NCBI GenBank assembly: GCA_963810095.1
Contig: CAWEMM010000006.1
Coordinates: 1,419,353-1,483,352, forward strand
DNA: 64,000 nucleotides
Reading direction: 5' to 3'
From: an uncultured Chloroflexia bacterium
GTDB taxonomy: Bacteria > Chloroflexota > Anaerolineae > CG2-30-64-16
Positions 39,038 through 64,000 of the stretch are shown here, in pieces. Within the stretch, counting starts at the first letter, position 1. Each line of letters begins with the position of its first letter. The notes under the pieces are model-generated. The model saw only the letters and a list, made by a program, of their open reading frames with translations. It did not search any database and was not told where the DNA came from. The position numbers and the translations under genes are program-made.

Positions 39038-40180
39038 ATGCTGAGCTACAAGCTGACCGACGAACAGGAAATGATCCGGGACATGGCCCGGAGTTTTGCA
39101 AAGAAGGAAATTCTCCCCGTCGCCGAGCACTACGACACGAGTGAAGAGTACCCCTGGCCGATCATCAAGAAGGCCAATCCGCTCGGCTTGATCAGCTCCA
39201 ACATTCCCGAAGCCTACGGTGGGCCGGGCTTTGGCGTCCTCGAAGAGTGCATCATCAACGAGGAACTGGCGTGGGGTTGCTCGGGCATCCAGACCGCGCT
39301 CATGCTGAACAACCTGGCCGCCTGGCCCATCATTTTGGCCGGGAACGAGGCGCAGAAGCAGAAGTACCTCACCCGGCTGACGGCAGGCGGCGAGCTGGCA
39401 TCGTACGGGCTGACCGAGCCGGCGGCCGGGTCAGACGTGGCAGGCATTCTGACGACCGCGGTCAAGAAGGGCGACGAGTATTATCTGAACGGCACCAAGA
39501 CGTGGATCACGAACGCACCCGTCGCGAGTTTCTTCATCATTTTTGCCAAGACCGACCCCGCGGGCCGGCACCGCGGCATGACCGCCTTCATCGTCGAGCG
39601 CAACTGGCCGGGGGTCAGCGTCGGCAAGCCCATCCGCAAGCTGGGGCAGCACGCGGCCTGGACGGGCGAAATCGTGATGGAGGACGTGTGCGTACCGGCC
39701 GAGAACCGGCTGGGCAACGACGGCGACGGGTTCATGATCGCGATGAAGGTCTTCGATCGCTCGCGGCCGCCCGTGGCAGCCGCCGCGGTGGGGGTGGCGA
39801 GGCGGGCGCTGGACGAGGCAACGAAGTATGCCATGGAGCGCAAGGCATTCGGCAAGCCGATTGCTGTGAACCAGGCGATCAGTTTCATGCTGGCCGACAT
39901 GGCGATGAACATCGAGGCGTCGGAGCACCTGACCCGGCACGCCGCGTGGCTGATCGACCAGGGCAAGTCGAACGTGAAGGAAGCGGCCATGGCCAAGGCC
40001 TTTGCGGCCGACACGGTAATGAAGGCGACGACGGACGCGGTACAGGTCTTCGGCGGCTACGGCTACAGCGCTGAATACCCTGTCGAGAAGCTGATGCGCG
40101 ACGCCAAGATTTACCAGATTTACGAGGGCACGAGCCAGATCCAGCGGGTAATCATCGCACGCGAGCTGACAAAGGGCTGA
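39038..40180 (+). CDS. acyl-CoA dehydrogenase
   Basis: This 380-aa protein reads [20 protein letters not shown], and [16 protein letters not shown] at the C-terminus. A GGACGGAGG RBS is present. Confidence 0.92.
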
Positions 40181-49179: not shown

Positions 49180-51416
49180 ATGGCACGCAGCATCGTCGAT
49201 CTAAGCACCCTTCCATGGCGTTTCGGCCAGGTCGCCCGCCAGGGCTTTTCGCACGCGGCCGAGCGACGACCGGCGCGCGGTCGCCAACTGGGAACCCGCG
49301 TCAGTCCCCGGCGACGTGCGAGCGGATCTGCTGGCGACGGGATATCTGCGCGGCCTGGATACACCGGAGGATCTTCCGCGGTCAGGCTGGGTGGACAGCG
49401 TCGACTGGTGGTATCGGGTCGATATCGATCCGGTCGAACCGGGAACCACGGTGGTTCTCGAAGCCGACGGGATCGACTACCTCAGCAGCGTGTGGCTGGA
49501 TGGAGAGTTTCTGGCCGCGCACCAGGGCATGTTTGCGCGGCAGGCACTCGTGCTCCCGCCGCCGCATGGAGGCGCCCGGGAAGCACGAGCTGGCGGTGCG
49601 GATTTGGGGCGCGGGTGCGCTGCCGCGCCTCCCCAACCCTCCGCTGCGCCGGGGCCTGCGCCGGCTGATCTGCGGCCTGGGTGTCGTCGACGAATACTTC
49701 CCCGATCGCCTCGCCACCCCCAAAGCGCAATACAGCTTCGGGTGGGACTTCGCGCCGCGCGTGCTGAGCACGGGCATCTGGGACGGCATCCGCCTGGTCC
49801 ACTGCCGGGGCGCCTATCTTTCCGACGTGCAGGTGCTTGCCGAGCCGCTGAGCGAGGGCGACCCGACCCCTGTCCGCTGGACCGTGCGGCTTACGACCCG
49901 GCGATTCGAGGAGCAGCGGCTCACTGCGCGGGTCGAGCTGCGCACGCTCGAAGGTGAACGGATCCCGCTGGCGCGCGATACCTTCGCGTTGGGCGAGGGC
50001 AATGCGGCGGACCTGGTCTTTGATTCGCCGCGACTGGCCCGCTGGTGGCCGTGGGACCAGGGTGAGCCGGCCCTCTACCGCCTTTCAGTTCGACTGTTCG
50101 ACGAGCGCGGGCCGGCCGACGAGGCGGAGACGGTGGTCGGGCGTGCGCACGGTGGGCCGCGAGCGCTTCAAGAACGGGCAGCCCTGGCGTTTCACGGTCA
50201 ACGGCCGCTCGGTCTTCCTGCGCGGGGCGAACTGGGTGCCCGCCGACATCCTGCCCGGCCGGGTGGCCGAGAATGACTATGCCGGCCTGATCGGGCAGGC
50301 GCGGGCCGGGGGGGTCAACTTCCTGCGGGTGTGGGGCGGCGGCATCCGCGAGAAGCCCGCGTTCTGGGAGCTGTGCAACCGGCAGGGCATCCTGGTCATG
50401 CAGGAGTTCCCCCTCGCTTGCACGTTCCTCGATCACTACCCGCGCGATCCGGGCTACCTCTCCGTGCTCGAGTCTGAGGCGCAAGGCATCGTCCGCGGCT
50501 TGCGCAACCACCCAAGTCTGATCGCCTGGTGCGGGGGCAACGAGATCAGCCCGCAACGTGAGCGGCTTCCTCTGCGTACTATTGAGCGGGTGCTGGCGCG
50601 CGAAGACCCCGGCCGGCCCTGGATTCCGGCTTCTCCGTCGACAGGGCGACATCCACAACTGGGACGTGTGGCATGGCGGCGCGCCCTGGCAGTCGTTGGC
50701 GCGGGTTCGCGCCCCGTTCATGAGCGAGTTCGGCGTGCAGGCGCTGCCCCATGCCGACACCATCGCCGAGATGTTTCCGTCGGGCCCGCCCACGCGGCTG
50801 GACGATGCCGGGTGGGCCGCGCGCAAGCTGCAGGCCGACAAGCTGCGTCACTACTGTGGGCCCTTGCCCGAAGAGGACCTGGTAGCCACGATTGAGGCTA
50901 CTCAGAGGACGCAGGCCGCGGCTCTGCAGGCGGGGATCGAGGCGTGCCGGCTCCGCCGCGAGGGCTCGGGCAGCCCGCGCCCATGCGGCGGGCGTGGCCT
51001 TCTGGCAGTTCAATGAGCCGTGGCCCGCGGTCTCCTGGTCCCTGGTCGACCGGCGCGGCCGGCCAAAGGCGGCCTACAGTATGCTCATGCGCAGCTACCA
51101 ACCCCTGCTCGTGGCGGCCGTGTTCGAGCGGCGGGCATGGCGGGCGGGCGACCGGTTCGACGCCGAGATCTGGGTGGTGAACGACGGGGCGGAAGAAGCA
51201 GCAGAGGGCGAAGTCGAGGCGCTGTTGGACGGGCGCAGCGTCTGCCCACGCAGCCGCGTCGCGGCGCCTCCCGCGTCTGCCCGGCAGGTTGGGGCATTCG
51301 GCGTGCAGTTGGCGGGGCCCCCGGCCACCCTCGCGTTGGCGTGGCGGGCAGGCGGTGCGGTTCTTGCCGCCAACGAGTATGACCTGCAGGTCTACTTGCC
51401 GCCGCCGCAGCCCTGA
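49180..51416 (+). pseudogene. glycoside hydrolase family 2 (beta-mannosidase-like) with five +1 frame disruptions
   Basis: The segments run in frame order 1>2>0>1>2>0. They read MARSIVDLSTLPWRF; WEPASVPGDVRADLLATGYL...LEADGIDYLSSVWLDG; HELAVRIWGAG...YSFGWDFAP; FTVNGRSVFLRGANWVP...NHPSLIAWCGGNE; DIHNWDVWHGG...SEFGVQALP; VAFWQFNEPWPAVSWSLVD. Confidence 0.85.
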
Positions 51417-51507
51417 TGGGTTGGCTGATGCGCCGCGCCGGCGAACTGCTGCTGCAAATTGGTTGACACATCGGGGTCGTTTCGGATATCCTCGCAAGCA
51501 GATAAAA

Positions 51508-52547
51508 ATGCGGATAGTCGTCAACGGCTGGTTCTGGGACCGGATGACCGCCGGCAGCGGGCAGTACCTGGCCGCGCTCGGCAGCCGTCTTGCCGCGCGC
51601 CGGCTCGGCGCACGAGTTCATTCTGGCGCTGCCGGCGGCGCACGAAGGAGCCGGCGACGCTCGCTCGAGGGTGGCGCACCGTGCGGCGCGGGACGCCGTT
51701 CGACGCGGCTGCAGCGCAGAACCTGGCCAAGCTGTGGTTCGAGCAGGTCACGTTTCCCGAGCTTGTGCCGCCGTCTGGGGGCGGACGTGGGTTTCGTGCC
51801 CTACTGGGGCTCGCCCTGGGCGCGGCCCTGCCCGATGGTCGTCACGGTGCACGACCTGATCCCGCTGCTGCTGCCGCTGTACCGGGGCGGAAGGCTGCAG
51901 CGGATGTACACCGCGTCTCGTCGGCGCGTACGGCTCGGCGGGCCGCGGCGGTCGTGACGGATTCAGAGGCCAGCCGCCGGGACATCGTGGCCCATCTCCG
52001 CGTGCCGGCAGAACGCGTGCATGCGGTCTATCTGGCGGCGGGCCGGCTGCGAGCTGGGCGCGGACGCCGGACGAGCGCGGCCTTCGCGGCGCGCTTGAAC
52101 CTGCCCGGCGGGCCGTTTTTGCTGTACCTGGGCGGCTTTGACGCACGCAAGAATGTGCTGCGGACGCATCGAAGGCTATGCGAAGCTGGCTCGAGCGGCG
52201 TGGCCGCCGAGGGGGCCGAAGCGCCGGCTTCTGGTCGATTGCGGGCCGGCTGCCCGCGGTCGACTCGGACTTTGCGCCGGATCCGCGGCCGGTGGTCCGC
52301 TCGGCTCGGGCGTGGCGGACCGTGTTCATTTTGCCGGCTGGGTGGACGAGGCAGACAAGGCCGCGCTGTACCGGCATGGCAGCAGGCGTCCTGTTTCGTC
52401 AGCGAGTATGAGGGGTTTGGCCTGCCGGTGCTGGAAGCGATGGCCTGCGACCGGGAAAAGAGATCCACGAGACCTGGTAGGTTCAAGCAACCAGGTCACC
52501 AGCTGCGAGATTGGGGAGTCCTGGTGACTGAACCGTGCGAAGACTGA
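51508..52547 (+). pseudogene. GT4-family glycosyltransferase with many +1 frame disruptions
   Basis: Fragments are spread over all three frames. They read MRIVVNGWFW, NLAKLWFEQVTFP, VVTVHDLIPLLLP, VVTDSEASRRDIVAHL, FLLYLGGFDARKNV, VHFAGWVDEADKAALYR and FVSEYEGFGLPVLEAMAC. Confidence 0.8.
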
Positions 52548-53927
52548 ATCGCGCGGGCCCACAACATCCTGACGCGCACGTTCAGCCTGCGGCGCGACCA
52601 GAACCTGCTGATTTTCGCCGACGTCGCGTCGCTGGAAGTGGTGGAAGTGGTGGCGCGGGTGGCGCGCGAGCTCGGCATCAACGACGACCGCGTTTTTCGT
52701 GCCCGCGGGTGCTCCAGCTCGAGATGGGGCCTAACGAAAGCCTGCCGCTGCCTGCCGAGGCCGCGGTGCGTGAAGCCGACGCGATCCTGAGCTGCCTGTC
52801 CGACCAGCCAGAACACCTGCACTATCGGATGCGCGTGCTGCACGCCAGCTGGGGCCGGCGGGCGCAGGCTCGGCCCACGCGCCCGGCATGACGCTCGAGA
52901 TCGCTGCAGCACGCATCGACACCGACTACGCGGCGATCAGCCGAGCAGGCCCAGCTGCTGAGCCTCGCGCTGATCCTGGGCAAGCGGGTCGAGATCGTCA
53001 CGACGGACAGCCAGCGCCGCGAGCACCGGCTGAACGTGCGGGTCGGCGGCTGGGACTATCCGCCCGGCATCAACGACGGGACGATTCGCGAGGGCGCGTG
53101 GAGCAACCTGCCGCCCGGCGAAGTCTACATCGTGCCGCGCGATGGGGACGGCCAGATCGTCGTCAACGGCTCGATTCCCGGCAAGGTGCTGGGGCCGGCG
53201 GAGGAGCTGATCCTGACTTTCCGCGAGGGCCGGTTGGTCGACGTGGAGCCGGAGGATGTGCCCGCCGCGCGTCATCTGCACGAGACGCAGATCGCCTACG
53301 CGGAGCGCCGCGGCGACACCAACTGGTCGAACCTGGCCGAGGTCGGCTTCGGGCTGAATCCCGCGGTGCAAGACCTGACCGGCCTGGGCGATCGTGGACG
53401 AGAAGAAGGCGCACACGGTTCATGTCGCGGTTGGGCACAGCGCCGGGCTGGGCGGCGACGTAGATTCGGTCATCCACTGCGACATGATCGCCAAGAAGCC
53501 GACTGTCTACGTCAACGGCCGGCTCGATCATGAAGCGGGGCGACTGGCGCATCAACGAGGCGGACTGGCGGCTGGATCACCGCACGGTGACGGTGCCGGT
53601 CGGCTGGTGGGAAAGCATGGGGCAGATTGGCGCGGAGCGGCGCCGCGCACCGAGCGTGAGTCGGGCCGGCTGACATGCGTGTGGAATGCGGGCCGGGGCC
53701 GGTGGGACAGCGCGCCGGTTGGCGTGGAGCAGACGGCGCGCCTGGCCGCTCGCGGTGTACGACCTGCTGCCCGAGAACGGCGTCCCGGTGGGCAAGGCGC
53801 GCGTGGTCGCGCTGGCCGAGCAGGCCGGGCATCCCGTGCGAAGCGCTGCCGCGGCCTGTTCTGGATCATGCTTCAGTTCGACCTGGTCCGGATGTCGCGG
53901 CGCGGTGCCGAGCCAATGCCGACGTAG
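52548..53927 (+). pseudogene. aminopeptidase (M29/AmpS-like) with a C-terminal extension; many +1 frame disruptions and no clear start codon
   Basis: Fragments across the frames read ILTRTFSLRRDQNLLIFAD, LEMGPNESLPLPAEAAVREADAIL, GHAPGMTLE, REGAWSNLPPGEVYIVP...VNGSIPG and VDEKKAHTVHVAVGHS...VIHCDMI. Confidence 0.6.
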
Positions 53928-53976
53928 ACCGGAGACGTCGAAGAACGAGGGGTCGTGGATAGCTGGGGAGAGCATC

Positions 53977-55530
53977 ATGACCGCAGTCAAGACCCCGTGG
54001 CGTCAATCGATGCCGGATTTCCTCCAGTTTCTGGATGGAACGCTGGGACACAAGGTCAAGCTCCACAAGGAAGTGCTCGGCTATGACCTGTATCTCGTCG
54101 ATCTTTCGGACTGGAAGCTGCGCTTCTCCGACCGCACGCCCTTGATCATCGTCAAGGAAGCGCGATCTGGCGTCGATGAGTGCCCGCGAGCTCGCGCAGA
54201 GCCTCGCCGAGGTGGTCCGCGGCCAGTCGCTGGCAGAGCGCAACCCCATCGTCGTCGTGCAGGGACCCGGCAGAGCGAACTCAAGGAGCAGCTGCACGCC
54301 GACGTACCAGCCGCTGCTGGTGCTGGACGAGGCGGACGTGCAGGCCGTGCGCGAGTCGCGGCGGCCCTCGGGCGAATTGCTCGACCGGCTCGCGCCGCAG
54401 CTCGACCTGTCGCTCCTGACGCCCTACGAGACGAGCAAGCCCGTCACCGGCTCGCGCTTCTTCGGCCGGGAGTTCGAGGTGCGCCGCATCCTGCAGACGC
54501 GGCGACAGCAATTTCGCCATTATGGGCATCCGGCGCATCGGCAAGACGTCGCTGATGCGCGAGATCGAGCGCCAGCTGAAGGAGCAGGCGCAGGAGGCCG
54601 AGAGCGAAGAGACGCTGGAGCGCATCATCTTTATGGATTGCAGCGCCATCGCGTCGCCCGAACAACTTCATCCAGGAAGTCGTGCGCAAGCTGCGGCCGC
54701 AGGAGCTGACGCGGCTGTCGTCCAAGCAGTACCCGATCTTCTTCCCCGATTTCCTCGAGCGGATGGCGCAGCGCTACGGCGGCCCGATCATGTTCTTCCT
54801 CGACGAGTTCGACAAGGTGCTTACCTGGCACTACGAGGACGACTCGCTGCTCAACGCGCTGCGGGCGTCGAGCAACCAGGGTCACTCGCGCTATATCGTC
54901 GGCGGCTTCCGCGATGTGATGCGTGCGTTCAGCGACCTGGAATCGCCCCTGTACAACTTCGCGCGGCCCATCCGCCTCAAGGAGTTCAGCCGGGAGCAGG
55001 CCGCGGCGATGATTCTCGGCCCGCTGGAGAAGTTGGGCGTGCAGTTCGAGCGCCGCAACGACGTGGTCAACCGCATCTTCGACGAGACCGCCGGCCAGCC
55101 GAACCTGATCCAGTTCTACTGCAGCATCCTGGTCGAGCGGCTGGACCGCGAGGGCAGCCGGCGCATCGCATCGCTCGCCCGAGAGCCTGTTCGACGTCTA
55201 CGGCAACGACGATTTCCGCGCGTTCGTGCTCAGCACCTTCATGGATAACACGACGCACCTGGAGAAGGCGATCGTGTTTGCGGTGATGGCGGACCTGGGC
55301 GCGGAGCATCCATTCGGCGTCCAGCAGATCGACGGCGCGCTCGAACGTCGCGGGCGTCGAAATCCCGCTGTCCGACCTGGACCTTGCCTGCCGCAACCTG
55401 GAGCTTGGCGGGCACCTTCACCTCGCGCGGGCCGATGTTCCGCTTCGCGACGCCGGTTTTCCCGCGCATGCTGAGCGAGAACTACGACGTAGACTACCTG
55501 TTCCGCAAAGTGCTGCAAGAGGGCATCTGA
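53977..55530 (+). pseudogene. AAA+ ATPase (Arch_ATPase/ORC-like P-loop) with an unknown N-terminal domain; six +1 frame disruptions
   Basis: The frame order is 1>2>0>1>2>0>1. It starts with MTAVKTPWRQSMPDFLQFLDG, followed by FFGREFEVRRIL. The Walker A-like motif is MGIRRIGKTSL and the Walker B-like motif is IMFFLDEFD. Later fragments read AGQPNLIQFYC and ...YLFRKVLQEGI-stop. Confidence 0.7.
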
Positions 55531-55532
55531 CA

Positions 55533-58386
55533 ATGAGCGCTAGCATCGAAGCCTGGCGGATCGTTCCCTACGAAGGAGGCGCATCGCCCGTTCAAGAAGG
55601 TGCGGGTGCGCGACGAGGCCGCGGGTGCGCGCGGTCGTGCGGCACCTGATGAACGACGAGTGCGTCGCCTTGCTCGGTCCGCCCATGAGCGAGAAGAGCC
55701 ACCTGCTGCGGGACGTGGCGGAGGCGCTGGAGCAGGGCGGTCGCTTCCGGCCGCTGCATATCGACTTGTGGCGCACACGATCGAACGATGAGGCCGCCTT
55801 CTTCACCAGCCTTGCCGAGTCTGCTGGCCGACGAGCTGCGGGACGCCGGCGCCGCGAGTCCCGACGAGCCGGCCGAGCACGCGCGGTTCCAGGGTTATCT
55901 CGCCGCTTGCGAATGCGAGCGGCCGCAGCCTTGCGCTGCTGATCGATCACCTGCAGGCGCTGCCGCACGACCTCGTCCACAGCCTGCTGCGTCGCCCTGC
56001 GCGCGGCCTACATGGAGCGCGAGGCCGACGCGCCGCACAGCCTGGTCGCGGTGGTCACCGGCGGCATCAACCTCGTCGGTCTGTCCGTCCGGCCCGACCT
56101 CGCCGTTCAACATCGCCAAACCCGTGGTCGCGACACCGCTGACCCTCGAACAGAGCCGCGCGCTGGCCGAGGCGACGCTCAAGCGCTGGAGTGCTCGGCA
56201 TCCGCCAACGGCATGGACCGCTTGCTGAGCCTGGGCGCAGGCGACCGGTACCTGATTCCGCGGCTCTGCGCCGACAGCTCCGAACTGGTCAGCTTGCACC
56301 GCCTGCACCGCGTGACGTCGGCCATTGCGGATCGCGCCGGCGCGGGCGCTCGTCGCCCGCGGACGCGGCCGCCGCCCGTTCGCGCCGCCATCCGCATGAT
56401 CGAGGAAGACCCGGACACGGTGCTGGACGTGCTGCACCTGCTCGACCACGGCTCGCTGCCGCGCTCACGCTCGCGCCAGATGCCGACGCGCACCGGCACG
56501 GACCGGCTGCAGCTCTCGGGCGCGGTGGTCCTGGTCGGATGGGTGCTACGGCTTTATGAACGAGGCGTACCGCGAGGCGTTGGCCGCGCACTTCACCACC
56601 GACCGGGTCGGGCACATGTTGCGGATTGCCGGGCCGGTGGAGCGAGGCGATCGCCTATCTCGCGCCGCAGCGGGCGCGCGTCGCGCGTCCGCAGCTGCTC
56701 GAAGCCATCGTCCAGATCGATCTATGCGAGCTGACTCGTCCGAACAGGCGTATCGGGCTGCTGGCCGACGGCCTGCGGCTCGGCTTCGGCCTGTCGGACA
56801 TCGGCATCTACTGCGGCGCTGCCGGCCGACTGCTCAGCTCGACCGCGTCTATCCGCCCAAGGACGGCGGCCCGAGGAGCACGTCGACCTGCGCGATCCCG
56901 GGTGCGTCGAGGCCCAGACCTTCAACCTGGGCAACTATGCGCTGCGCGGCACCGCGGATGAGGCGCGCCTGGTCGTCGCGCTGGCATCGGCCAGCCGGCC
57001 GCTCGGCGTCGTGACGATCGAACGCTATGTGCAGAACCGCGATCCGCACGAGCTGCCCGACGAACTGCCCGACCTGCTGCGTTTCCTGCAGCACGCAGTC
57101 CGGGGCGCTGGAAAACGTCATCACTCGGGCTGCCTACCGCGCCATCGGACAGGCCGTGCTGGATGCCAAGGCCATGCAGCCGACCGTGGAGCGGGTGCTC
57201 GAGACGGTAGCGGAGGCGCTTGGGCTGCGACTACGGCGCCCTGTATCTGCGGGATGAGACCGCCGCCAGCTGGAGATGGCCGCAGCAGTCGGCAGGGTGG
57301 TGACGGAGGAGTGGCAGGCGCAGGCGCGCTTTCCCCTCGACGGCCGACACCCCGCGGTCACCGCGCTGCTGGAGGGGCGGATGTTGACGGCGCGAGGGGG
57401 CGAGGACGCAGAGGACCGCGTGCTGCACGACCGTTTCGGCCTGCACCGCTACCTGCGCGTCTTCCTGCCTCTGCTCGCCGGCGGCGAACAGCTCGGCACG
57501 CTCGAACTGGGCTACGCGAGCCGGCCGCATGCGCATGTCGGATGAGCTACAAGCGGACGCTGGTCGAGTTCGCCGACCAGGTGGCGATCGCGGTGCATAA
57601 CATGCTGCTGCTGCGGCGGACGGACGAGGCGCTGGCACGCGCAAGCTGGCCGAGCTTGTCGGTGGGCCGCGAGATTCAGCTCAGCCTGCTGCCGAAGGTC
57701 ACGCCGACCGTTCCCGGCTGGCAGTTCGCGGCCATGTACGAGGCCGCCCGCACCGTCGGCGGCGACTTCTACGACTTCTGCGAATTGCCGGGTCCGCCCG
57801 CATCGGCTGGGCGTCGTCATTGCCGATGTGGCGGACAAGGGCGTGCCGGCCGCGCTGTTCATGGCGGTCAGCCGGACGATCATTCGCAGCGTCGCGCTTC
57901 ACCGGCCGCGGCCCGGCCGTCTGCCCTGATGCGAGCGAACCAACTGATTCTCGCCGACAGCCAGGCCGACCTGTTCCTGAGCGCGATCTACCTGGTGCTC
58001 GAGACCGACAACGGGCGCGGATTTCGTTCAGCAACGCGGGGCACAACCGGCCGCTGCTGGTACCGCGCTGCGGACCGCGCAGCTCACGCGAGCTGACCCA
58101 GCGCGGCATCATCCTGGGCGCGTTCGACGAGATCACGCTGCAGGACGACACGGCTGGACCTGGCCGCCGGCGACGTGCTGGTGCTGTACACGGACGGCGT
58201 CACGGACGCGCTCAACGCGGACGGGCGAGGAGTTCGGCGAGCAGCGCCTGTTCGACGTGGTGCGGGGCAGCGCCGCACGGCAGCGCGCAGGAGATCCTGT
58301 GGGCGATCACGGGCGCGCTGGCGGGCTTCATCGGCGACACGGAGCAGGCGGACGACGTGACCTGCGTCGTGATCAAGAAGGACTAG
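55533..58386 (+). pseudogene. STAND-like ATPase fused to two GAF domains and a PP2C/SpoIIE phosphatase; at least 12 +1 frame disruptions
   Basis: The fragments begin with VALLGPPMSEKSHLL (P-loop) and LALLIDHLQALPHD. The GAF-like fragments are LETVAEALG..GALYLRD and FLPLLAGGEQLGTLELGY. The SpoIIE fragments are [53 protein letters not shown] and DDVTCVVIKKD-stop. Confidence 0.7.
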
Positions 58387-58475
58387 GCCTTTGTTTGTTG
58401 GGGCCCGGATGACCCTCAACACCTGGTTGCATGGGCCGCCTTGCTGTTGGGGGCCGTCGGGCCCCCAACGCCCCC
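58387..58475. repeat. GC-rich hairpin repeat, copy E, left part (interrupted by the IS)
   Basis: It contains GTTGGGGCCCGGATGACCCTCAAC and GTTGGGGGCCGTCGGGCCCCCAACGCCCCC, ending exactly at the IS481 left end. Confidence 0.7.
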
Positions 58476-58562: not shown

Positions 58563-59705
58563 ATGCCCTGGCGAGAGGCAAATGCCATGTCCTTACGACT
58601 TGATTTCGTGACCCGAGCTGGTCACGAAGCTGCTAACGTGCGGGCCCTGTGCCGCGAGTTCGGTATCAGCCCGAACACTGCGTACAAGTGGCTTGTGCGC
58701 TACCAGGCGGCGGGGCCCGCGGGGCTGGCCGATCGCTCACGGCGCCCGAACGCAGTCCGAGCCGACACGCCGCCCGGCCGCGAACAGTTGGTGCTGGCGA
58801 CGCGCCAGGCCCACCCGGCCTGGGGCGGCCGCAAGCTCAAGGCCTACCTGGAGCAGGCCGGCTATGCGGACGTGCCGGCAGCTTCCACCATCACAGCCAT
58901 TCTGCGCCGGCACGGGGCGCTGGATGACCAGGAGGGCGCTCAGCATCGCGCCTTTCAGCGTTTCGAACGTGAGGCGCCCAACGAGCTGTGGCAGATGGAC
59001 TTCAAGGGCCATTTTGCGCTCGGGGATGGTACGCGCTGCGACCCCTTGACGGTCCTCGACGACCATGCGCGCTTCCTGTTGGCGCTGGACGCCTGTGCCG
59101 ACGAGACCCGCCGCACGGTGCAGGCCGCGCTGACCGGCGTCTTCGAGCGCTACGGCTTGCCCGAGCGCATCCTGTGCGATCATGGGCCACCGTGGGGCGC
59201 CCCCAATGCCGGCGACGTGTACACGACGTTGAGTGCGTGGCTCTTGCGGCTGGGCATCGGGGTCGTGCACGGGCGGCCCAAGCATCCGCAGACGCAAGGC
59301 AAGGACGAGCGATTGCATCGCACGTTGCGGGCCGAGTTGCTGCGCCGGCAGACGTTCGCCGATCTGCCGGCCTGTCAGCCCGCCTTCGATACCTGGCGGC
59401 AGATGTATAATGAACAGCGCCCGCATGAGGCGCTAGCCATGCAGGTGCCGGCGGCCCGCTATCGGCCCAGCCCGCGCCCGTGGCCCGCCCGCCTGCCCGC
59501 GATCGAGTATCCGGCCAGCGACCGAGTGCGCCGGGTGCAAGATAAGGGCCAGATCAAAGTCGGCGGCCACGAGTTTCGCATCGGCAAAGCCTTCATCGGC
59601 TACCCGGTGGGCCTCCGGCCCACGAACCAGGACGGCTGCTATGACGTTTACTTCTGCGCCCAGCGCATTGGCCAAATTCAACTATCCGCCGGGCAACGGA
59701 TTTAG
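58563..59705 (+). CDS. IS481-family transposase (DDE integrase core), intact
   Basis: The N-terminal HTH reads MPWREANAMSLRLDFV...LCREFGISPNTAYKWLVRY...DRSRRP. The rve-type core reads ELWQMDFKG...DHGPPWG...KHPQTQGKDERLHRTL. Confidence 0.9.
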   Translation: MPWREANAMSLRLDFVTRAGHEAANVRALCREFGISPNTAYKWLVRYQAAGPAGLADRSRRPNAVRADTPPGREQLVLATRQAHPAWGGRKLKAYLEQAGYADVPAASTITAILRRHGALDDQEGAQHRAFQRFEREAPNELWQMDFKGHFALGDGTRCDPLTVLDDHARFLLALDACADETRRTVQAALTGVFERYGLPERILCDHGPPWGAPNAGDVYTTLSAWLLRLGIGVVHGRPKHPQTQGKDERLHRTLRAELLRRQTFADLPACQPAFDTWRQMYNEQRPHEALAMQVPAARYRPSPRPWPARLPAIEYPASDRVRRVQDKGQIKVGGHEFRIGKAFIGYPVGLRPTNQDGCYDVYFCAQRIGQIQLSAGQRI

Positions 59706-59709
59706 CTCA

Positions 59710-61518
59710 GCCTGTGGGTAAGGGGCTGTCCGAAAAGTAATCGGGCGGCCCCTTTTTTGCGTGCTTTTCTCGCGTTCTTTAAGGATTCATGGTTTAATGG
59801 GGGCATGAAACGCAAACCTGCTGCCCCCGTCTTCAAGCCCTACACGATGGCTCAGCCGCAGTTGCTGCCGCCGAGCCTGGATGAGTTGATCGAGCCGGAC
59901 CACCTGGTGCGGGTGGTAAATGCGGCGATCGACCAGTTGGATTTGCGGCCGCTGCTGGCGCAGTACCCCGGCGGCGGGACGTCCAGCTATCATCCGCAGA
60001 TGCTGCTGAAGGTGTTGGTGTACGCCTATTGCAGCAAGATCTACTCGTCGCGGCGGATTGCGGCGGCGCTGCGGGAGAACATTCACTTCATGTGGTTGAG
60101 TGGCGGGAACCGGCCGGACTTTCGCACGATCAACGACTTTCGCGGGCAGCGGATGAAGGGCGTGATCGACGCGGTGTTCGCCGAGGTGCTGCAGTACCTG
60201 GTCGAGGCGGGGTACGTGCAGTTGGAGCACTACTTCGTCGACGGGACGAAGATCGCCGCCGATGCGAACCAGCACAAGGTGGTGTGGGCCAAGCGCACGG
60301 CGCGTTACCAGCAGCGGGTGCGGGAGCAGATCGCGTGAGTTGCTGCGGCAGATCGAGCAGGTGAATGCTGACGAGCAGGCCGAGTACGGCGATGCCGATC
60401 TGGAAGAGCGGGGCCGGCGGTGGGGGTGGCGAGATCGACTCGGACGCAACTCAAGGAGCGCATCGACCAACTCAACCAGCGGCTCCGCGAGCGTCAGCAC
60501 CCCAAGCCCGAAGCCCAGGCAGCCGAGAAGGCGCTGAAGAAACTGGCGACGGATTGTCTGCCGCGGTTGGAGAAGTACGAGCAGCAGACCGCGACGCTGG
60601 CGGGGCGGTCGAGCTATGCCCAGACCGACCCGGACGCCACGTGCATGCGGATGAAGGAAGACCGCGGCGCCGAGCGGCCCTGGCCCAAGCCGGCCTACAA
60701 CGTGCAGGTGGGCACGGAAGGGCAATTCATCGTCGGGTTCAGCGTGCACGACCAGGCGGGCGACACCGGGTGCCTGATCCCGCATCTGGAGCAGGTGCGC
60801 CAGAACACCGGCGGCCGCTTACCGCAGAACGTGGTGGCGGATGCGGGGTACGGCAGCGAAGAGAACTACGCCTATCTGGAACAGCAGCAGGTGGGCAACT
60901 ACCTCAAGTACAACACCTTCTACCAGGACACGCATCATTACCGCGACCCGGCCGTGCTGCGGGCGCACCAGTTCCGGGCCGAGAACTTCGCCTACGACGC
61001 GGCCACCGACACCTTCGTCTGCCCGGCCGGCCAGCGGCTGCACTTCCAGTACACCACCCGCTACACCAGCGACAACGGCTACCTGAGCGACCGCCGCATC
61101 TACGAATGCTTCGCGTGTGCCGACTGCCCGCTGCGCAGCCAGTGCACCCGGGCCAAAGGCAACCGCCAGATTCGCATCAGTTTCCGCTTGCTCGCCTACC
61201 GCAAGCAAGCCCGCGACAACCTGACCAGCGCCGACAGGTGAGCGCTTACGCGCCGCGCGCTCCGTCGAGGTGGAAACCGTCTTCGGGCATATCAAACAGA
61301 ATATGGGCTTCCGGAGATTTCACTTACGCGGGCGGGCGAAAGTGAAGACCGAATGGGGGCTCGTGAGCATCGCTCACAACCTGAAGAAGGTGGCGGCCGC
61401 ATAGGCCGCTTTTTTTCTCCGCTTTCCGCGAGCTCCAACTCATCTCCCGCTGACTCCGAATCGGCACAAGAAAGGGGCTGCCTGGATGTTCTTTCCAGAC
61501 AGCCCCTTACCCACAGGC
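59710..61518 (+). mobile_element. IS1182-family insertion sequence, nested 5 nt after the IS481 transposase stop
   Basis: The terminal inverted repeats are 28 bp with 2 mismatches. The left one is GCCTGTGGGTAAGGGGCTGTCCGAAAAG (59710-59737). The right one is the reverse complement of CTTTCCAGACAGCCCCTTACCCACAGGC (61491-61518). I saw no clear target duplication. Confidence 0.8.
59805..61404 (+). pseudogene. IS1182-family transposase with four +1 frame disruptions
   Basis: The frame order is 0>1>2>0>1. The fragments are MKRKPAAPVFKPYTMAQPQLLPPSLDELIEPDHLVR..., ELLRQIEQVNADEQAEY, QLKERIDQLNQRL...DAGYGSEENYAYLE...CPLRSQCTRAKGNRQI and the tail VEVETVFGHIKQNMGFRRFHLRG...NLKKVAAA-stop. Confidence 0.85.
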
Positions 61519-61603: not shown

Positions 61604-61760
61604 CCCGACGAAGGGCTGCGCCGCTTCGACCCCCTAATTTGCTCGGGCAGCACCGCATCCGCCGTCTAACGCGCACGGCTGCCGGCCGGGACGGGGCCGA
61701 CAGTGGCAGGCTTGCACGAACCGACGCGATGGAAAATGTACGTCAGGCGGTTTCGCTTTG
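61604..61760. repeat. GC-rich hairpin repeat, copy E, right part
   Basis: CCCGACGAAGGGCTGCGCCGCTTCGACCCCCTAA and GGCAGGCTTGCACGAACCGACGCGATGGAAAATGTACG are colinear with modules 2-3 of copies A and D. Confidence 0.6.
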
Positions 61761-61762
61761 CA

Positions 61763-64000
61763 TCAAGGGCGGCGGGGGCCCGCGGGACCGGGCCAAAGCG
61801 GGAAACCGCCGCCCGTCACAGGCAGGGTGCCGGGCCCACGCAGGACGTCCGACTTGAAGCGCGGGATGATACGGTAGCCCGCGTCGGGCGTCTTCTCGCC
61901 CACGGACTGCCCCAGGACGCCCTGCCGCGGCCCACATCTGCCCGATCTGCACGTAGGGGCGGCGCCAGGGCAGGCTCTCGGGGAAGTAGATGCGGATCAG
62001 CCCGGCCCTGTCTTTCAAGACCAGGCCGCGCGTCTCGTACTTGACCACCGCACCCACGACCTGCACGAGCCTCCCCTCGTTCGCTTCTGCCAGGTCCGCC
62101 GAGGTGACCGGCTGCGGCGCGACAGCCTTGCCTTCGCCCAGCACTGTTAAGTAACCGGCATCGGGGACAGATAACTCGGTTTCTCCGTAGAAGTCGCGGG
62201 TCCAGCCCGTGACCCGCACCCGGCTGCCCGGCTTCAGCGTGGGATAGTCGCCTTTGCGCAGGTAGACCTTGATGCCCCCTGTCTCGTCCTGCAAGTAGAT
62301 CGTCTTCGCAATCAGCCCGGGCGGGAAAGTCACGGTGCCGCTGACGACGGCGCGACTGTCTACCTTCGCCGAGCGGGCCGCCGCGACGGTTTGCGGAACC
62401 GGCGGGGGCGTGGCTTGGGGCGGAGCAGGCGCCGCGGGCGCAGGAGGCGGCAGCAGGCGGTTCGGCTGGCCCGGCGTCGCCTCGCAGTCGGACGTCCACC
62501 CGCCTACGCCGTCGGTGTTCCGACAGTAACTGCGGTCTGCGCCCGGCCCATGGTCATAGGCGAAGCGGTCTGCCAACGTCCCGTCGCTCCTGGTGAGGGT
62601 CACCGAGTCGCGCCAGTCGCTCAGCGAGAGACGGGTCTGGCCGCGGAAGAACAGCATGAAGCTGTGGGGCCAGATCACGGCGCCCGCGGGAATGCGGTAG
62701 CTCGCGGCCTCATCGCCGATCTGCCAGCCCTCCAGGGGGACGGCGCTGCCCGTCGGATTATGCAACTCGATCCATTCGTCCGAGAAGTTCGCCGTGCCGT
62801 CGCGATCCCAGTCGACCGAGCGCGGGTCAGGGAGGATTTCATTCAGCTTGACCTTCAGCGCATCGGGCGGGAGCGGGGTGGGGGTCGGCGTCTGCGTGGA
62901 CGTGGGCGAGGCCGTGACGGTGCCGGTGGGAGTGCGCGTTGGCGTGACAGTGCGCGTGGGTGTGGAGGTGCGCGTGGGCGTGACGGTACGCGTGGGTGTG
63001 GAGGTGCGGGTGGGCGTCGGCGTGGCGGCGGGATCGCGGGTTGGGGTCGCGGTCGGCGTTGCGGTGGGCACGAGGGTCGTGCGCTCGCCTGGGTTGGGCG
63101 CTTGGCGGGTCCAGTCCGCCGCGCTGTCACTGTCCTGGAGGTTCCAGCGGCCTAGTGACTCGCCGGCACGCACTTTCTCGCAGGGCGGCTCGTTAATGCT
63201 CGTGTCCGAGCCGTAGCTCATGGCGTCGACGACGGTGGCGTCGGGTGCGAGGAGGCGGACCGCGTCGCCGGTGTTGCTCAGCCCGTTGCCAATGGCGCCC
63301 TCGAGGCTGACGAGCAGGCCCGAGAAGCCGGGGAAACTGGCGCGGAACGCGGCTTCTTTGGCGGCAACAACGGCATATTCGCCGGGCAGCAGGCTGAACT
63401 CGGGCAGCGCGTCCTGGCCCGTGTTGTCGCCGATGCGCCAGCCCGAGAGCAGGACCGCGTCGCCCGTGGGGTTCACGATCTCGACGAACTCCCAATCGGC
63501 ATCCGCGCCGTCTTGGATAGGGTCGTACAGCACTTCACTTAGGAGCAGCTTCGGCCAAGCCGCCGGATACGGGAGAGTTGGCGAAGGCGTCGGCGTGGCT
63601 GTGCGGGTGGAGGCGGGCGTGCGCGTGACTGTAGGCGTGCGGGTGACCGTGGGACTTGGGCCGGCCGTTCGCGTCGCAGCCGGCGTGCGGGTTGCGCTCG
63701 CGGTCCGAGTCGGAGTCCGCGTGAGGGTTGCAGTCCGCGTGATTGCGGTCCGCGTTGGGCTCGCGGTGCGGGTTGGGCTGGGGGTGCGGGTCGGCGTCGG
63801 AGTGGGCGTGCTTTCGATCGTCCCGCTCACGCCGGGATTGGGGACCGATTGCCCATACCAGTCTTCTGCCGTGCCGGTGTCCATGTCGCTGGGGATACGC
63901 GACAAGGACTCGCCGGCCGCTACCCCGGGGCACGCCGGGTCGAACGCCGTCGTATCTGAGCCATAGCTCATCGCATCTGCCAGCACGCCGTTCGGCGCCA
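61763..64000 (-). pseudogene. secreted multi-LTD (lamin-tail-domain) / OB-fold protein; 5' end outside the window, with one +1 disruption near 61935
   Basis: There are three LTD-like repeats (SEVLYDPIQDGADADWEFVEIVNPTGDAVLLSGWRIGD; NEILPDPRSVDWDRDGTANFSDEWIELHNPTGSAVPLEGWQIGD; a partial one at the window edge). They are separated by TPTRT-type linkers. An OB-like region follows (VVSGTVTFPPGLIAKTIYLQDETGGIKVYL). The tail GVLGQSVGEKTPDAGYRIIPRFKSDV lies in the next frame. Confidence 0.8.
62932..63020 (-). repeat. 36-bp tandem repeat (about 2.5 copies) encoding the Pro-Thr-Arg linker
   Basis: Unit 62932-62967 and unit 62968-63003 differ at 3 positions. They encode STPTRTVTPTRT repeats within the LTD protein. 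Confidence 0.8.

Follow-up and report, generated by a model that had tools for sequence, protein, structure and literature searches.

A co-conserved pair of paralogous STAND-type ATPase genes with exchangeable signalling outputs in Anaerolineae and Caldilineae

The gene pair and its domains

The window, i.e. the whole stretch of 64,000 nucleotides analysed here, comes from a filamentous Chloroflexi bacterium and contains two adjacent forward-strand genes, neither of which is covered by an intact open reading frame. Both were therefore rebuilt by frameshift-aware protein-to-DNA alignment using the intact orthologues on the metagenome contig L001 as reference. Gene 1 (53977..55530, 8 frame breaks) encodes a protein of 512–514 aa with a restriction-endonuclease-like (REase-like) N-domain, an Arch_ATPase/nSTAND1-type NTPase and a winged helix, and shares 92% identity with the intact orthologue P0003. 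Gene 2 (55533..58386, 31 frame breaks) encodes ~945 aa with an NTPase and winged helix, a helical linker, the two GAF domains GAF-A and GAF-B and a PP2C phosphatase, and is 80% identical to L001:11543-14404. The start and stop positions given for both genes in an earlier note on this DNA agree with the repaired frames. The spacing of 3 nt reported there applies if one counts to the A of the ATG; the gap itself between the TGA stop of gene 1 and the ATG of gene 2 is 2 nt (TGAcaATG). All motifs quoted there (GIRRIGKTSL, FFLDEFD, LLGPPMSEKS and LLIDHLQ) were found again.

The N-domain of gene 1 (aa 1–148, 53977..54421, forward strand) had been described as unrecognised. It indeed matches no housekeeping family, and it can now be tentatively assigned to the PD-(D/E)xK (restriction-endonuclease-like) alpha/beta fold with Can2, Card1, HamA and FokI as top fold matches. 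The catalytic D...(D/E)xK is not conserved among 77 family representatives; residues conserved in the Anaerolineae clade are D42, S44, W46, K47 and R49 together with an SRRP motif. The following P-loop NTPase core (54422..55173, forward strand) shows a Walker A motif GIRRIGKTS from 54525, a Walker B motif FFLDEFD from 54793 and the GxP motif GQPNLIQFY from 55093. As both Walker motifs are invariant in 75 homologues (invariant columns G182, R184, R185, G187, K188, S190, D274 and E275), gene 1 looks like an active ATPase. Its winged-helix-like C-terminal domain (55174..55527, forward strand) is defined by an hhalign alignment to the corresponding segment of gene 2, and the previously suggested winged-helix tail is backed by the homologous archaeal ATPases 2fna and 2qen.

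Gene 1 has more than 700 homologues (best E=0), most of which carry nSTAND1 as their precomputed Pfam assignment. Gene 1 itself matches Pfam nSTAND1 (PF20703) with 43.9 bits and E 3.3e-11 against a gathering cut-off of 27.1, covering profile positions 14–224 of 379. The match to ATPase_2/Arch_ATPase (PF01637; 30.9 bits, 3e-7) stays just under the cut-off of 33.2 bits, TniB (9.5e-8, 32.1 bits) exceeds its cut-off of 22.4 bits, and AAA_22 is matched as well. In a profile search the sole sequence-level PDB match was 2fna (archaeal ATPase SSO1545, 3.6e-8). Top structural matches include NB-ARC NLRs, CED-4, Apaf-1 and ORC/Cdc6. NTPase core, GxP motif and C-terminal winged-helix segment together give the classical STAND layout. 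A C-terminal repeat sensor of the TPR, WD40 or LRR type was not found in gene 1, which stops after the winged helix at aa 512, nor does gene 2 contain superstructure-forming repeats, its winged helix being followed by the GAF domains.

The N-module of gene 2 (55533..56620, forward strand) consists of an ATPase_2/AAA_35-type NTPase and a winged helix, with a deviant Walker A motif GPPMSEKS from 55670 and a Walker B motif LLIDHLQ from 55936. It matches Pfam AAA_16 (3e-4), and 2qen and 2fna are matched by its model. The P-loop reads GxPxSEK[ST] in clades A and B, whereas clade C shows the canonical GPRLSGKT. The gene 1 core and the gene 2 N-module are paralogous (hhalign probability 94.4% over 335 columns) and have the motifs SPLYNFA/SPFNIA and GQPNLI/GDRYLI in common. 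The helical linker and GAF-A (56622..57064, forward strand) belong to the module that is kept in all relatives, while GAF-B (57156..57583, forward strand; Pfam GAF_2 1.4e-10, GAF 1.2e-9) is optional and missing from the clade C relatives; the GAF assignments of gene 2 are backed by HMM or fold matches. The C-terminal SpoIIE/RsbU-type PP2C domain (57665..58383, forward strand) covers positions 1–190 of the 192 of Pfam SpoIIE (PF07228; 1.2e-40, 140 bits) and shows the metal-binding Asp motifs GGDFYD, ADVADKG, YTDGVTD and ADDVT. The best NCBIfam match of gene 2 is SiaA with 8e-12, far under its cut-off.

Directly upstream lies a gene for an M29-like metallopeptidase (52524..53928, forward strand) of ~462 aa with a C-terminal extension of ~130 aa and 15 single-base insertions, which is 78% identical to L001:8585-9973 in the frameshift-aware alignment. 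Its match to Pfam Peptidase_M29 (2.8e-5, 23.6 bits) lies under the 27-bit cut-off. Across 29 orthologues E269, H296, H314 and D316 hardly vary, and motif similarity suggests that they probably correspond to the metal ligands of M29. Of the 71 loci with enough upstream sequence, 28 have the gene next to gene 1 in the same direction, and these cover all three clades, making it a probable third operon member. In the mechanism proposed below this frequent partner plays no role.

Frame breaks in the window

The M29-like gene, gene 1 and gene 2 carry 54 frame breaks, 48 of them +1 insertions, and two genes further upstream carry more. The affected block comprises five consecutive unrelated genes (49.2–58.4 kb, ~9 kb) and is sharply bounded, the flanking genes including those directly upstream (45.2–49.1 kb) being intact. 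No in-frame stop occurs in the ~1,920 repaired codons, and GC3 phase switches number 13–17 per 4 kb in the block compared to 2–8 elsewhere. Many homologues of gene 2 in the databases, including several on very long contigs, are fragmented likewise. Because almost all breaks are +1 insertions, are confined to a sharp block of five genes and come without in-frame stops, they are most likely sequencing or assembly errors, and the module is therefore probably functional in the organism, a conclusion that hinges on the breaks being errors.

The earlier note had suggested that the locus may be inactive. A decaying pseudogene block in this genome, with real frameshifts and an inactive module, would fit the large number of breaks, the end of the block at two IS elements and the lack in the window of the genes by which L001 separates gene 2 from the LTD gene. 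Bacterial pseudogenes mostly accumulate deletions, however, which is opposite to the predominance of single-base insertions found here, and dN/dS is still 0.04–0.14. With the repaired codons free of nonsense codons, the genes immediately upstream of the block edge intact and the same fragmentation in many gene 2 homologues pointing to a technical problem with such sequence, we regard gene decay as clearly unlikely and a sequence-quality artefact as the better explanation.

Conservation of the pair and exchange of its output

We compiled a set of 80 loci, each from a different Chloroflexota assembly. The pair is kept in about 70 Anaerolineae and Caldilineae loci. Where the sequence extends far enough, the gene 1 orthologue is in nearly all cases followed directly by a gene with the ~520-aa N-module of gene 2, whose open reading frame begins −14 to +3 nt from the stop of gene 1. 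The pairwise protein distances of gene 1 and gene 2 correlate with r=0.98 (58 loci). The two genes are strictly co-conserved and translationally coupled and do not look like chance neighbours. Co-conservation elsewhere was the test that the earlier note had named for its own proposal, and the result supports its view of the two genes as one module of the STAND kind that belongs to no named system. Compared to L001, gene 1 has a dN/dS of 0.038 and gene 2 one of 0.11, both at dS ~1; neither exceeds the values of the neighbouring ABC transporter genes. Gene 1, with 92–94% protein identity at this dS, is under very strong purifying selection. The common synteny in clade A is GH2, GT4, M29-like gene, gene 1 and gene 2, and clustering of the neighbours in 81 loci revealed no further conserved neighbour.

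The output domain of gene 2 is exchanged between relatives: in this clade it is either PP2C or a DHp + HATPase histidine kinase and never a toxin. A receiver/TCAD9 kinase-like gene follows immediately downstream in 11/11 distinct kinase-type loci (85 loci surveyed), while only two PP2C-type loci have a TCAD9-like match, located at a distance and on the other strand. Next to the PP2C forms neither a STAS protein nor any other phosphoprotein partner is conserved. Signalling parts also occur in other fusions of the N-domain and ATPase unit, namely a Ser/Thr kinase, two GAF domains or beta-propellers.

A proposed signalling switch and competing readings

We propose, with a probability of roughly 0.57, that the two proteins are the subunits of a cytoplasmic signalling switch of the STAND/archaeal-ATPase type that is specific to the lineage and often accompanied by the M29-like peptidase gene. 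Gene 1 would be the catalytically competent ATPase subunit, with its constant N-domain serving as a probably non-catalytic binding or docking domain, and gene 2 a paralogue turned into the output subunit, with a P-loop that is deviant in this clade, one or two GAF domains and PP2C. RsbU/SpoIIE-type PP2C phosphatases and histidine kinases both act as dimers. Nucleotide-dependent co-assembly of the paralogous cores, and hence hetero-oligomerisation, may bring the output domains together and switch them on by induced proximity. The signals modulating this co-assembly may be ligands of the GAF domains and the N-domain, and the outcome would be an altered Ser/Thr phosphorylation of a target as the presumed substrate. 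In the sister lineages the same core would drive the histidine kinase, which in turn may act on the adjacent receiver + kinase-like protein. The module would then be an unnamed signalling system and not a typical phage-defence gene.

Between the two roles suggested earlier, signal-transducing or defence-type, the low dN/dS, the synteny, the PADLOC search and the lack of phage or plasmid copies favour signalling in this clade. A STAND/NLR-kind conflict or anti-phage system, with gene 1 as invader sensor or nuclease and gene 2 giving a phosphorylation response, is unlikely. In its favour, gene 1 scores above the nSTAND1 threshold, and this clade was defined from systems predicted to act against invaders (PMC8195603); the N-domain of gene 1 probably has a nuclease-type fold. 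Some relatives also point in this direction. A distant one consists of a Pkinase-N-domain-ATPase protein paired with an AAA_35-SIR2-caspase protein and adjoins a DEAD helicase and TGT, another sits among nSTAND1-FGE, NACHT-FGE and RE_endonuc genes, a CHAT protease gene follows one kinase-type relative, and in Ca. Amarolinea the pair adjoins an MmeI-type restriction-modification gene and PIN/BrnT toxin-antitoxin genes. Since some distant relatives carry SIR2-caspase or adjoin nSTAND, FGE or CHAT genes, the architecture includes immune-type members, and a conflict role is conceivable for this clade as well. Against it stands that a search of PADLOC-DB v2 gave no significant match, with only marginal hits for gene 1 (E 4.5e-4 and 6.7e-4, ~17 bits) and none for gene 2, the M29-like protein, the kinase form or the TCAD9 protein. 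The slow evolution of gene 1 is contrary to that of fast-evolving immune sensors, glycosidase and glycosyltransferase genes remain syntenic with the pair, and the 80 listed loci represent 80 assemblies. No relatives were found in IMG/VR or phage records, and those on plasmids showed only 24% identity. The outputs in this clade, the lack of a conserved catalytic (D/E)xK in the N-domain and the lack of a repeat-type sensor domain in gene 1 argue in the same direction.

Two further readings treat the genes separately. Gene 2 could be an ordinary RsbU/SpoIIE-type partner-switching phosphatase with gene 1 as an unrelated neighbour, as its PP2C domain belongs to the SpoIIE family, SiaA is its best NCBIfam match despite the low score and one source labels homologue fragments as 'sigma-B regulation protein RsbU'. 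This is very unlikely, because gene 1 is co-conserved with, coupled to and paralogous with the N-module of gene 2 and because a histidine kinase can replace PP2C while the pair persists. Furthermore, STAS/RsbV or RsbW-type genes are absent from the Pfam-annotated neighbourhoods L001–L005, L090, L093 and L094; at the seven Pfam-annotated loci with a gene 1 homologue of ~500–520 aa no STAS or RsbW gene was found, so that the partner-switching context that would have spoken against the earlier proposal is missing there. Gene 1 as a TniB/TnsC-like transposition ATPase of the adjacent insertion sequences has next to no probability. Its TniB match lies above the cut-off, and IS481-family and IS5/IS1182-like transposase genes are located 0.2–3 kb downstream, so that the module does lie beside mobile elements in the window as noted before. 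This neighbourhood is incidental, however: the IS elements occur in this window only, clustering of the neighbours at 81 related loci shows no recurrent transposase gene, and ATPase_2 and nSTAND1 match better than TniB, which contradicts a role in transposition.

The preferred reading, a signalling switch, can be compared with several known systems. With the nSTAND1 clade (Kaur, Iyer, Burroughs & Aravind 2021, eLife 10:e70394), a family enriched in filamentous, multicellular bacteria, gene 1 shares the P-loop NTPase, the helical GxP segment and the winged helix as well as the principle of a variable accessory domain on a constant NTPase core. It differs in matching only part of the profile, and the pair lacks TPR, WD40 or FGE C-terminal sensors and EAD or Death-like adaptor domains, consists of paralogous NTPases with PP2C or histidine kinase as output and shows very high sequence conservation and chromosomal synteny. 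PAB2304 (PDB 2qen) and SSO1545 (PDB 2fna) show the same layout of NTPase and winged helix, but they are stand-alone proteins of ~350 aa without REase-like N-domain, GAF, PP2C or known paired arrangement, and their function is not named in the PDB entries. As in RsbT-RsbU, RsbQ-RsbP and SpoIIE, a SpoIIE-family PP2C with an N-terminal regulatory region is expected to be controlled by a partner from the same operon, and partner-induced dimerisation is the established activation model for RsbU. Here, in contrast, a STAND-type ATPase, itself a paralogue of the N-module of the phosphatase, takes the place of the small kinase or hydrolase as partner, GAF sensors are present and RsbV, RsbW and STAS genes are missing nearby. 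Avs proteins also have a STAND-type core, some with an N-terminal nuclease-fold domain, but each is one large polypeptide with TPR-like sensors at the C-terminus and a catalytic effector, and they occur patchily in defence islands, whereas the pair has no significant PADLOC matches, sensor repeats or conserved nuclease motif and its inheritance follows the lineage.

A similar logic is seen in the plant sensor/helper NLRs and in heteromeric AAA+ assemblies with degenerate subunits such as ORC and clamp loaders, in which adjacent paralogous STAND/AAA+ genes are inherited together and one subunit is canonical while the other combines a deviant P-loop with an effector; plant NLRs and ORC/Cdc6 rank among the top structural matches. 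The likeness goes no further than this logic, with no evidence of a common descent of the pairing, and the pair has no LRR, integrated decoy or, in this clade, cell-death effector. Tentatively, and with less weight than the switch itself, the pair might belong, as its signalling branch, to a wider 'paired STAND' architecture of two genes that is so far undescribed and has an effector-swapping gene B, domesticated in Anaerolineae into a highly conserved regulator. Gene A of this architecture would combine a variable input with the constant REase-fold domain and an Arch_ATPase-type NTPase, and gene B would be its translationally coupled paralogue with an AAA_35-type NTPase and winged helix, whose exchangeable C-terminus is either a signalling enzyme (PP2C, histidine kinase) or a death effector (SIR2-caspase). 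If true, bacteria would have an equivalent of the plant sensor/helper NLR pairs, with a domesticated regulator in Anaerolineae that is possibly tied to an M29-type peptidase.

Reconstruction of the genes in a frame-broken block

The window has a G+C content of 65–70%, and between 53977 and 58386 no single-frame ORF exceeds about 290 aa, with long plausible protein stretches alternating among the three forward frames. The genes were repaired by frameshift-tolerant alignment of the intact orthologues from L001, a JGI metagenome contig, to the window DNA; as the closest DNA relative of the window is only 79% identical, the indel positions come from this protein-guided alignment. Three consecutive genes were rebuilt, an M29-like peptidase gene at 52524–53928 (462 aa, 78% identity to L001, 15 frame breaks), gene 1 at 53977–55530 (512–514 aa, 92% identity, 8 frame breaks) and gene 2 at 55533–58386 (about 945 aa, 80% identity, 31 frame breaks); the intact gene 2 product of L001 has 953 aa. 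Gene 1 stops with TGA and gene 2 starts two bases downstream. The coordinates, lengths and motifs that an earlier note had given for both genes all proved correct in this frameshift-aware rebuild.

Single extra bases make up 48 of the 54 breaks in these three genes, and not one in-frame stop was found in the repaired genes across about 1,920 codons. In the DNA alignment of 49.1–58.4 kb to L001 the window shows 59 single-base insertions and 8 single-base deletions, which are not limited to homopolymers. The GH2 glycosidase and GT4 glycosyltransferase genes further upstream are broken in the same way, and the genes at 45.2–49.1 kb are single in-frame matches. Five consecutive genes (GH2, GT4, M29-like, gene 1 and gene 2) are thus broken in a block of about 9.2 kb (49180–58386) that has sharp edges, about 60 single-base insertions (about 1 per 150 nt) and intact genes on both sides. 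A homologue-free test following the GC-richest codon phase counted 13–17 switches per 4 kb at 52–60 kb versus 2–8 elsewhere. As the near-exclusive +1 insertions, the nonsense-free repaired codons and the sharp edge are unlike real decay, the frame breaks are, judged from the sequence, probably a low-quality stretch of the assembly and not biology, and the earlier suspicion that the locus may be inactive would then probably stem from these errors. Automatic annotation of the block would yield five pseudogenes. Many gene 2 homologues in the databases are fragmented like the window copy, several of them on very long contigs (the contig of the window has 1.92 Mb); this gene of high GC content is often frameshifted in public assemblies, and its family is under-annotated. 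Among the gene 2 homologues P0122–P0144, many public calls are truncated with out-of-frame tails, and several derive from very long contigs.

Architecture and conservation of the pair

The core of gene 1 matches the Pfam family nSTAND1 with 43.9 bits, exceeding the cut-off, and also AAA_22 and TniB, with ATPase_2 slightly under the cut-off. The only solved structure matched by a profile of 75 homologues was that of the archaeal ATPase SSO1545 (2fna, 3.6e-8). Neither Walker A (GIRRIGKTS) nor Walker B (LDEFD) varies among 75 homologues; after them come a motif of GxP type (GQPNLIQFYC) and, at the C-terminus, a winged-helix segment, in agreement with the tail described before. The first 145 or so residues match no Pfam family and had been called unrecognised, but a fold can now be proposed for them. 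They are strongly conserved in the family (WKLRFSDRTP, SRRPxGELLDRL), and an AlphaFold2 model of this domain, taken from the orthologue P0003 (93% identical), is confident with a pLDDT of 83.6. Foldseek against the PDB gave nothing significant for the N-domain; its top sub-significant hits Eme1, EcoO109I and EndoMS all have the restriction-endonuclease-like fold. Since no conserved acidic/lysine catalytic set is present across 77 representatives of the wider family, we regard the N-domain as a putative restriction-endonuclease-like domain, probably without catalytic activity.

Residues 1 to about 365 of gene 2 are paralogous to the core of gene 1 (hhalign probability 94.4%, E 9e-8, 335 columns) with common motifs such as SPLYNFA/SPFNIA. 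In the clade of the window and in Caldilineae its Walker A reads GxPxSEK[ST], with glutamate in place of the second glycine, and a more distant clade has the canonical sequence GPRLSGKT; Walker B follows hhhhD-H/P-L-[QE]. The output part differs between clades, with GAF-B and PP2C in the clade of the window, PP2C straight after GAF-A in the distant clade C (775–790 aa), and a DHp and HATPase histidine kinase in Ca. Amarolinea, Caldilineae and a few others.

More than 700 full-length homologues of gene 1 were found, every named one being from Chloroflexota. Scanning one genome per species resulted in 80 loci from 80 different assemblies (the window's own genome is not among them), including Anaerolineae and Caldilineae MAGs, Ca. 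Amarolinea and Litorilinea. Nearly all loci that extend far enough have a large ORF whose start lies at −14 to +3 nt relative to the stop of gene 1 and whose first 520 or so residues match the gene 2 N-module including GAF-A. Pairwise protein distances of gene 1 and gene 2 correlate with r=0.98 over 58 loci, so that the pair is indeed kept elsewhere, which the earlier note had proposed to check.

One downstream partner gene follows the output type. In a survey of 85 loci a gene for a receiver and a TCAD9/APH kinase-like domain lies directly downstream in all 11 distinct kinase-type loci (L003:14956–16521, L005, L021, L028–L031, L035, L079, L082 and L093), the partner having about 520 aa and being split over two genes in L093; a TCAD9-like match occurs in only two of the PP2C-type loci, at a distance and on the opposite strand. 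The kinase-type locus L028 comes from a MAG of Litorilinea aerophila. This correlation suggests a cascade from the histidine kinase through the receiver to the kinase-like protein. The 'ternary systems' from which TCAD9 takes its name were rejected as a match, as they are MoxR-vWA systems of unrelated composition. The M29-like gene, whose product conserves the putative metal ligands, is found directly upstream and co-directional in 28 of the 71 loci with enough sequence and in all clades, and the common synteny of clade A, to which the window belongs, is GH2, GT4, M29-like, gene 1, gene 2. A short AAA_16/AAA_22/nSTAND1-like ATPase gene (309–345 aa) recurs a few kb downstream of kinase-type loci (L003:17565–18602, L005:17712–18737 and, on the opposite strand, L093:15210–16139) and may represent a second, related system; its neighbours in L005 are an additional GAF-histidine-kinase gene and an additional APH/TCAD9 gene.

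When 1.84 billion proteins were searched with a profile of the N-domain, only 379 cluster representatives were retrieved. Most have about 500–530 aa, and a few are extended N-terminally by a Ser/Thr kinase, by two GAF domains or by propellers of the BNR/Sortilin type. In all four relatives whose context was read the next gene is a paralogue of the gene 2 N-module, as judged by hhalign (94–98.6%) for three and by Pfam AAA_35/AAA_16 labels only for the fourth. This downstream gene encodes an AAA_35-type NTPase alone, without output domain, in L088, GAF and a histidine kinase in L090, where a receiver and then a CHAT protease come next, a short AAA_35/AAA_16 protein among nSTAND1-FGE and NACHT-FGE genes in L089, and AAA_35, SIR2 and caspase domains in L086. 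These relatives show a general plan in which gene A has input, endonuclease-like domain and ATPase and gene B has the paralogous NTPase and an output, the latter ranging from signalling enzymes to death effectors. In L086:1–14445 (Logan SRR10872584) and in L087 a Ser/Thr kinase is fused N-terminally to the endonuclease-like domain and the ATPase, and the AAA_35-SIR2-caspase gene overlaps this gene by 4 nt. The pair is flanked there by NUDIX, a 1783-aa DEAD helicase gene and a TGT-family gene, the latter two adjoining the downstream gene in L086, and the neighbourhood looks like a conflict-type island.

Signalling or defence

The literature on nSTAND1, TCAD9, PF14516 and paired STAND systems that was searched holds no description of the pair, in line with the former remark that the combination is not a named system. 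The parts themselves, namely nSTAND1/Arch_ATPase NTPases, GAF, PP2C and the PD-(D/E)xK fold, are already known. As far as this literature shows, what is new is their combination, in which two paralogous STAND-type NTPases are translationally coupled, one subunit having a constant endonuclease-fold domain and the other a swappable PP2C, kinase or SIR2-caspase output. The pair does not fit RsbU partner switching, as the Pfam-annotated loci have no STAS or RsbW-type genes, and is very unlikely to be the ordinary RsbU-type regulator considered before; it fits neither Avs-type defence nor TniB transposition ATPases nor ORC/Cdc6 (TIGR02928 reached 32.7 bits, far under the cut-off of 181). We file it among the STAND-type signalling NTPases.

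The earlier note had left the choice between a signal-transducing and a defence-type STAND module. For the clade of the window we favour a signalling switch, with a probability of roughly 0.55–0.6, because the outputs in this clade are PP2C and histidine kinase only, gene 1 is under stronger purifying selection (dN/dS) than the neighbouring ABC transporter genes, the synteny of clade A is shared, the 80 loci come from 80 assemblies, a PADLOC search of the pair gave nothing significant and no relatives were found in IMG/VR and phage records. In comparison to L001, with silent sites near saturation (dS about 1), the dN/dS values of gene 1, gene 2 and the M29-like gene are 0.038, 0.11 and 0.14, respectively. 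Plasmids gave relatives of 24% identity only, and these hits (Streptomyces, Brasilonema) were set aside as giant multidomain proteins. That the pair is a conflict or defence system appears unlikely to us against this evidence, even if gene 1 is labelled nSTAND1, its N-domain seems to have a fold of nuclease type, distant members have immune-type outputs or neighbours and the locus of Ca. Amarolinea lies amid restriction-modification and toxin-antitoxin genes. In this locus (L003:1–9720, Ca. Amarolinea aalborgensis) the neighbours are an MmeI-type restriction-modification enzyme, the toxin-antitoxin pairs PIN/DUF2281 and BrnT/CopG, TumE and two transposases, a neighbourhood of defence and mobile-element type unlike the sugar-enzyme synteny conserved in the clade of the window.

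As a signalling switch, the two paralogous cores would co-assemble in a nucleotide-dependent manner, as STAND/AAA+ proteins do, with gene 1 providing the competent ATPase site and gene 2 the deviant site and the output, comparable to heteromeric AAA+ assemblies with degenerate subunits. GAF ligands and whatever the endonuclease-like domain binds could bias this assembly, which would bring together two PP2C or two kinase domains. This would fit both enzyme types, as RsbU-type PP2Cs and histidine kinases act as dimers. Since the kinase forms would feed the receiver and kinase-like protein and the PP2C forms would remove phosphate directly, both versions might set the Ser/Thr phosphorylation of some target.

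In bacteria as in plants and animals, STAND/NLR-type ATPases have a central part in immunity and cell death, and the bacterial proteins are known almost only as single, self-contained polypeptides. If the reading as a signalling switch is true, the strictly co-inherited paralogous pair, in this clade with a canonical ATPase subunit and an output subunit with deviant P-loop, would be a simple system to study hetero-oligomeric STAND activation. Because a phosphatase, a histidine kinase and, among the distant relatives, SIR2-caspase replace each other as output, the family also bears on the interconversion of immune-type and ordinary signalling machines. Very few characterised regulators are known from Chloroflexota, and with a dN/dS of 0.04 the pair would rank among the best conserved regulatory modules specific to this lineage and is a target for study.

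The region downstream of gene 2

Gene 2 is followed by an intact IS481-family transposase gene (58563–59705, 380 aa; rve, HTH_32, LZ_Tnp_IS481) and an IS5/IS1182-like transposase gene split into two ORFs (59757–61241; DUF772, then DDE_Tnp_1_6). The mobile elements noticed before are peculiar to the window; L001 has at their position a SnoaL-like gene and a gene for a 1186-aa BTAD-AAA_16-TPR regulator. The IS481 element is not duplicated in the window, the other 380-aa ORF at 39038 being an acyl-CoA dehydrogenase. The stretch that separates gene 2 from the IS481 transposase gene contains an inverted repeat with perfect 10-bp arms, GTTGGGGGCC gtcg GGCCCCCAAC (58446–58469), with no T-run 3' of it and with a related 'TTGTTGGGGCCCGG' at 58396–58409; the repeat may represent either an IS end or a structure of the target site. 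Behind the elements the synteny with L001 resumes at the same LTD-domain gene, in the window at 61743–63986 on the minus strand (747 aa as listed), whose product has two Lamin Tail Domains, a segment resembling an OB fold, and long Thr/Pro linkers of TPTPTRT type.
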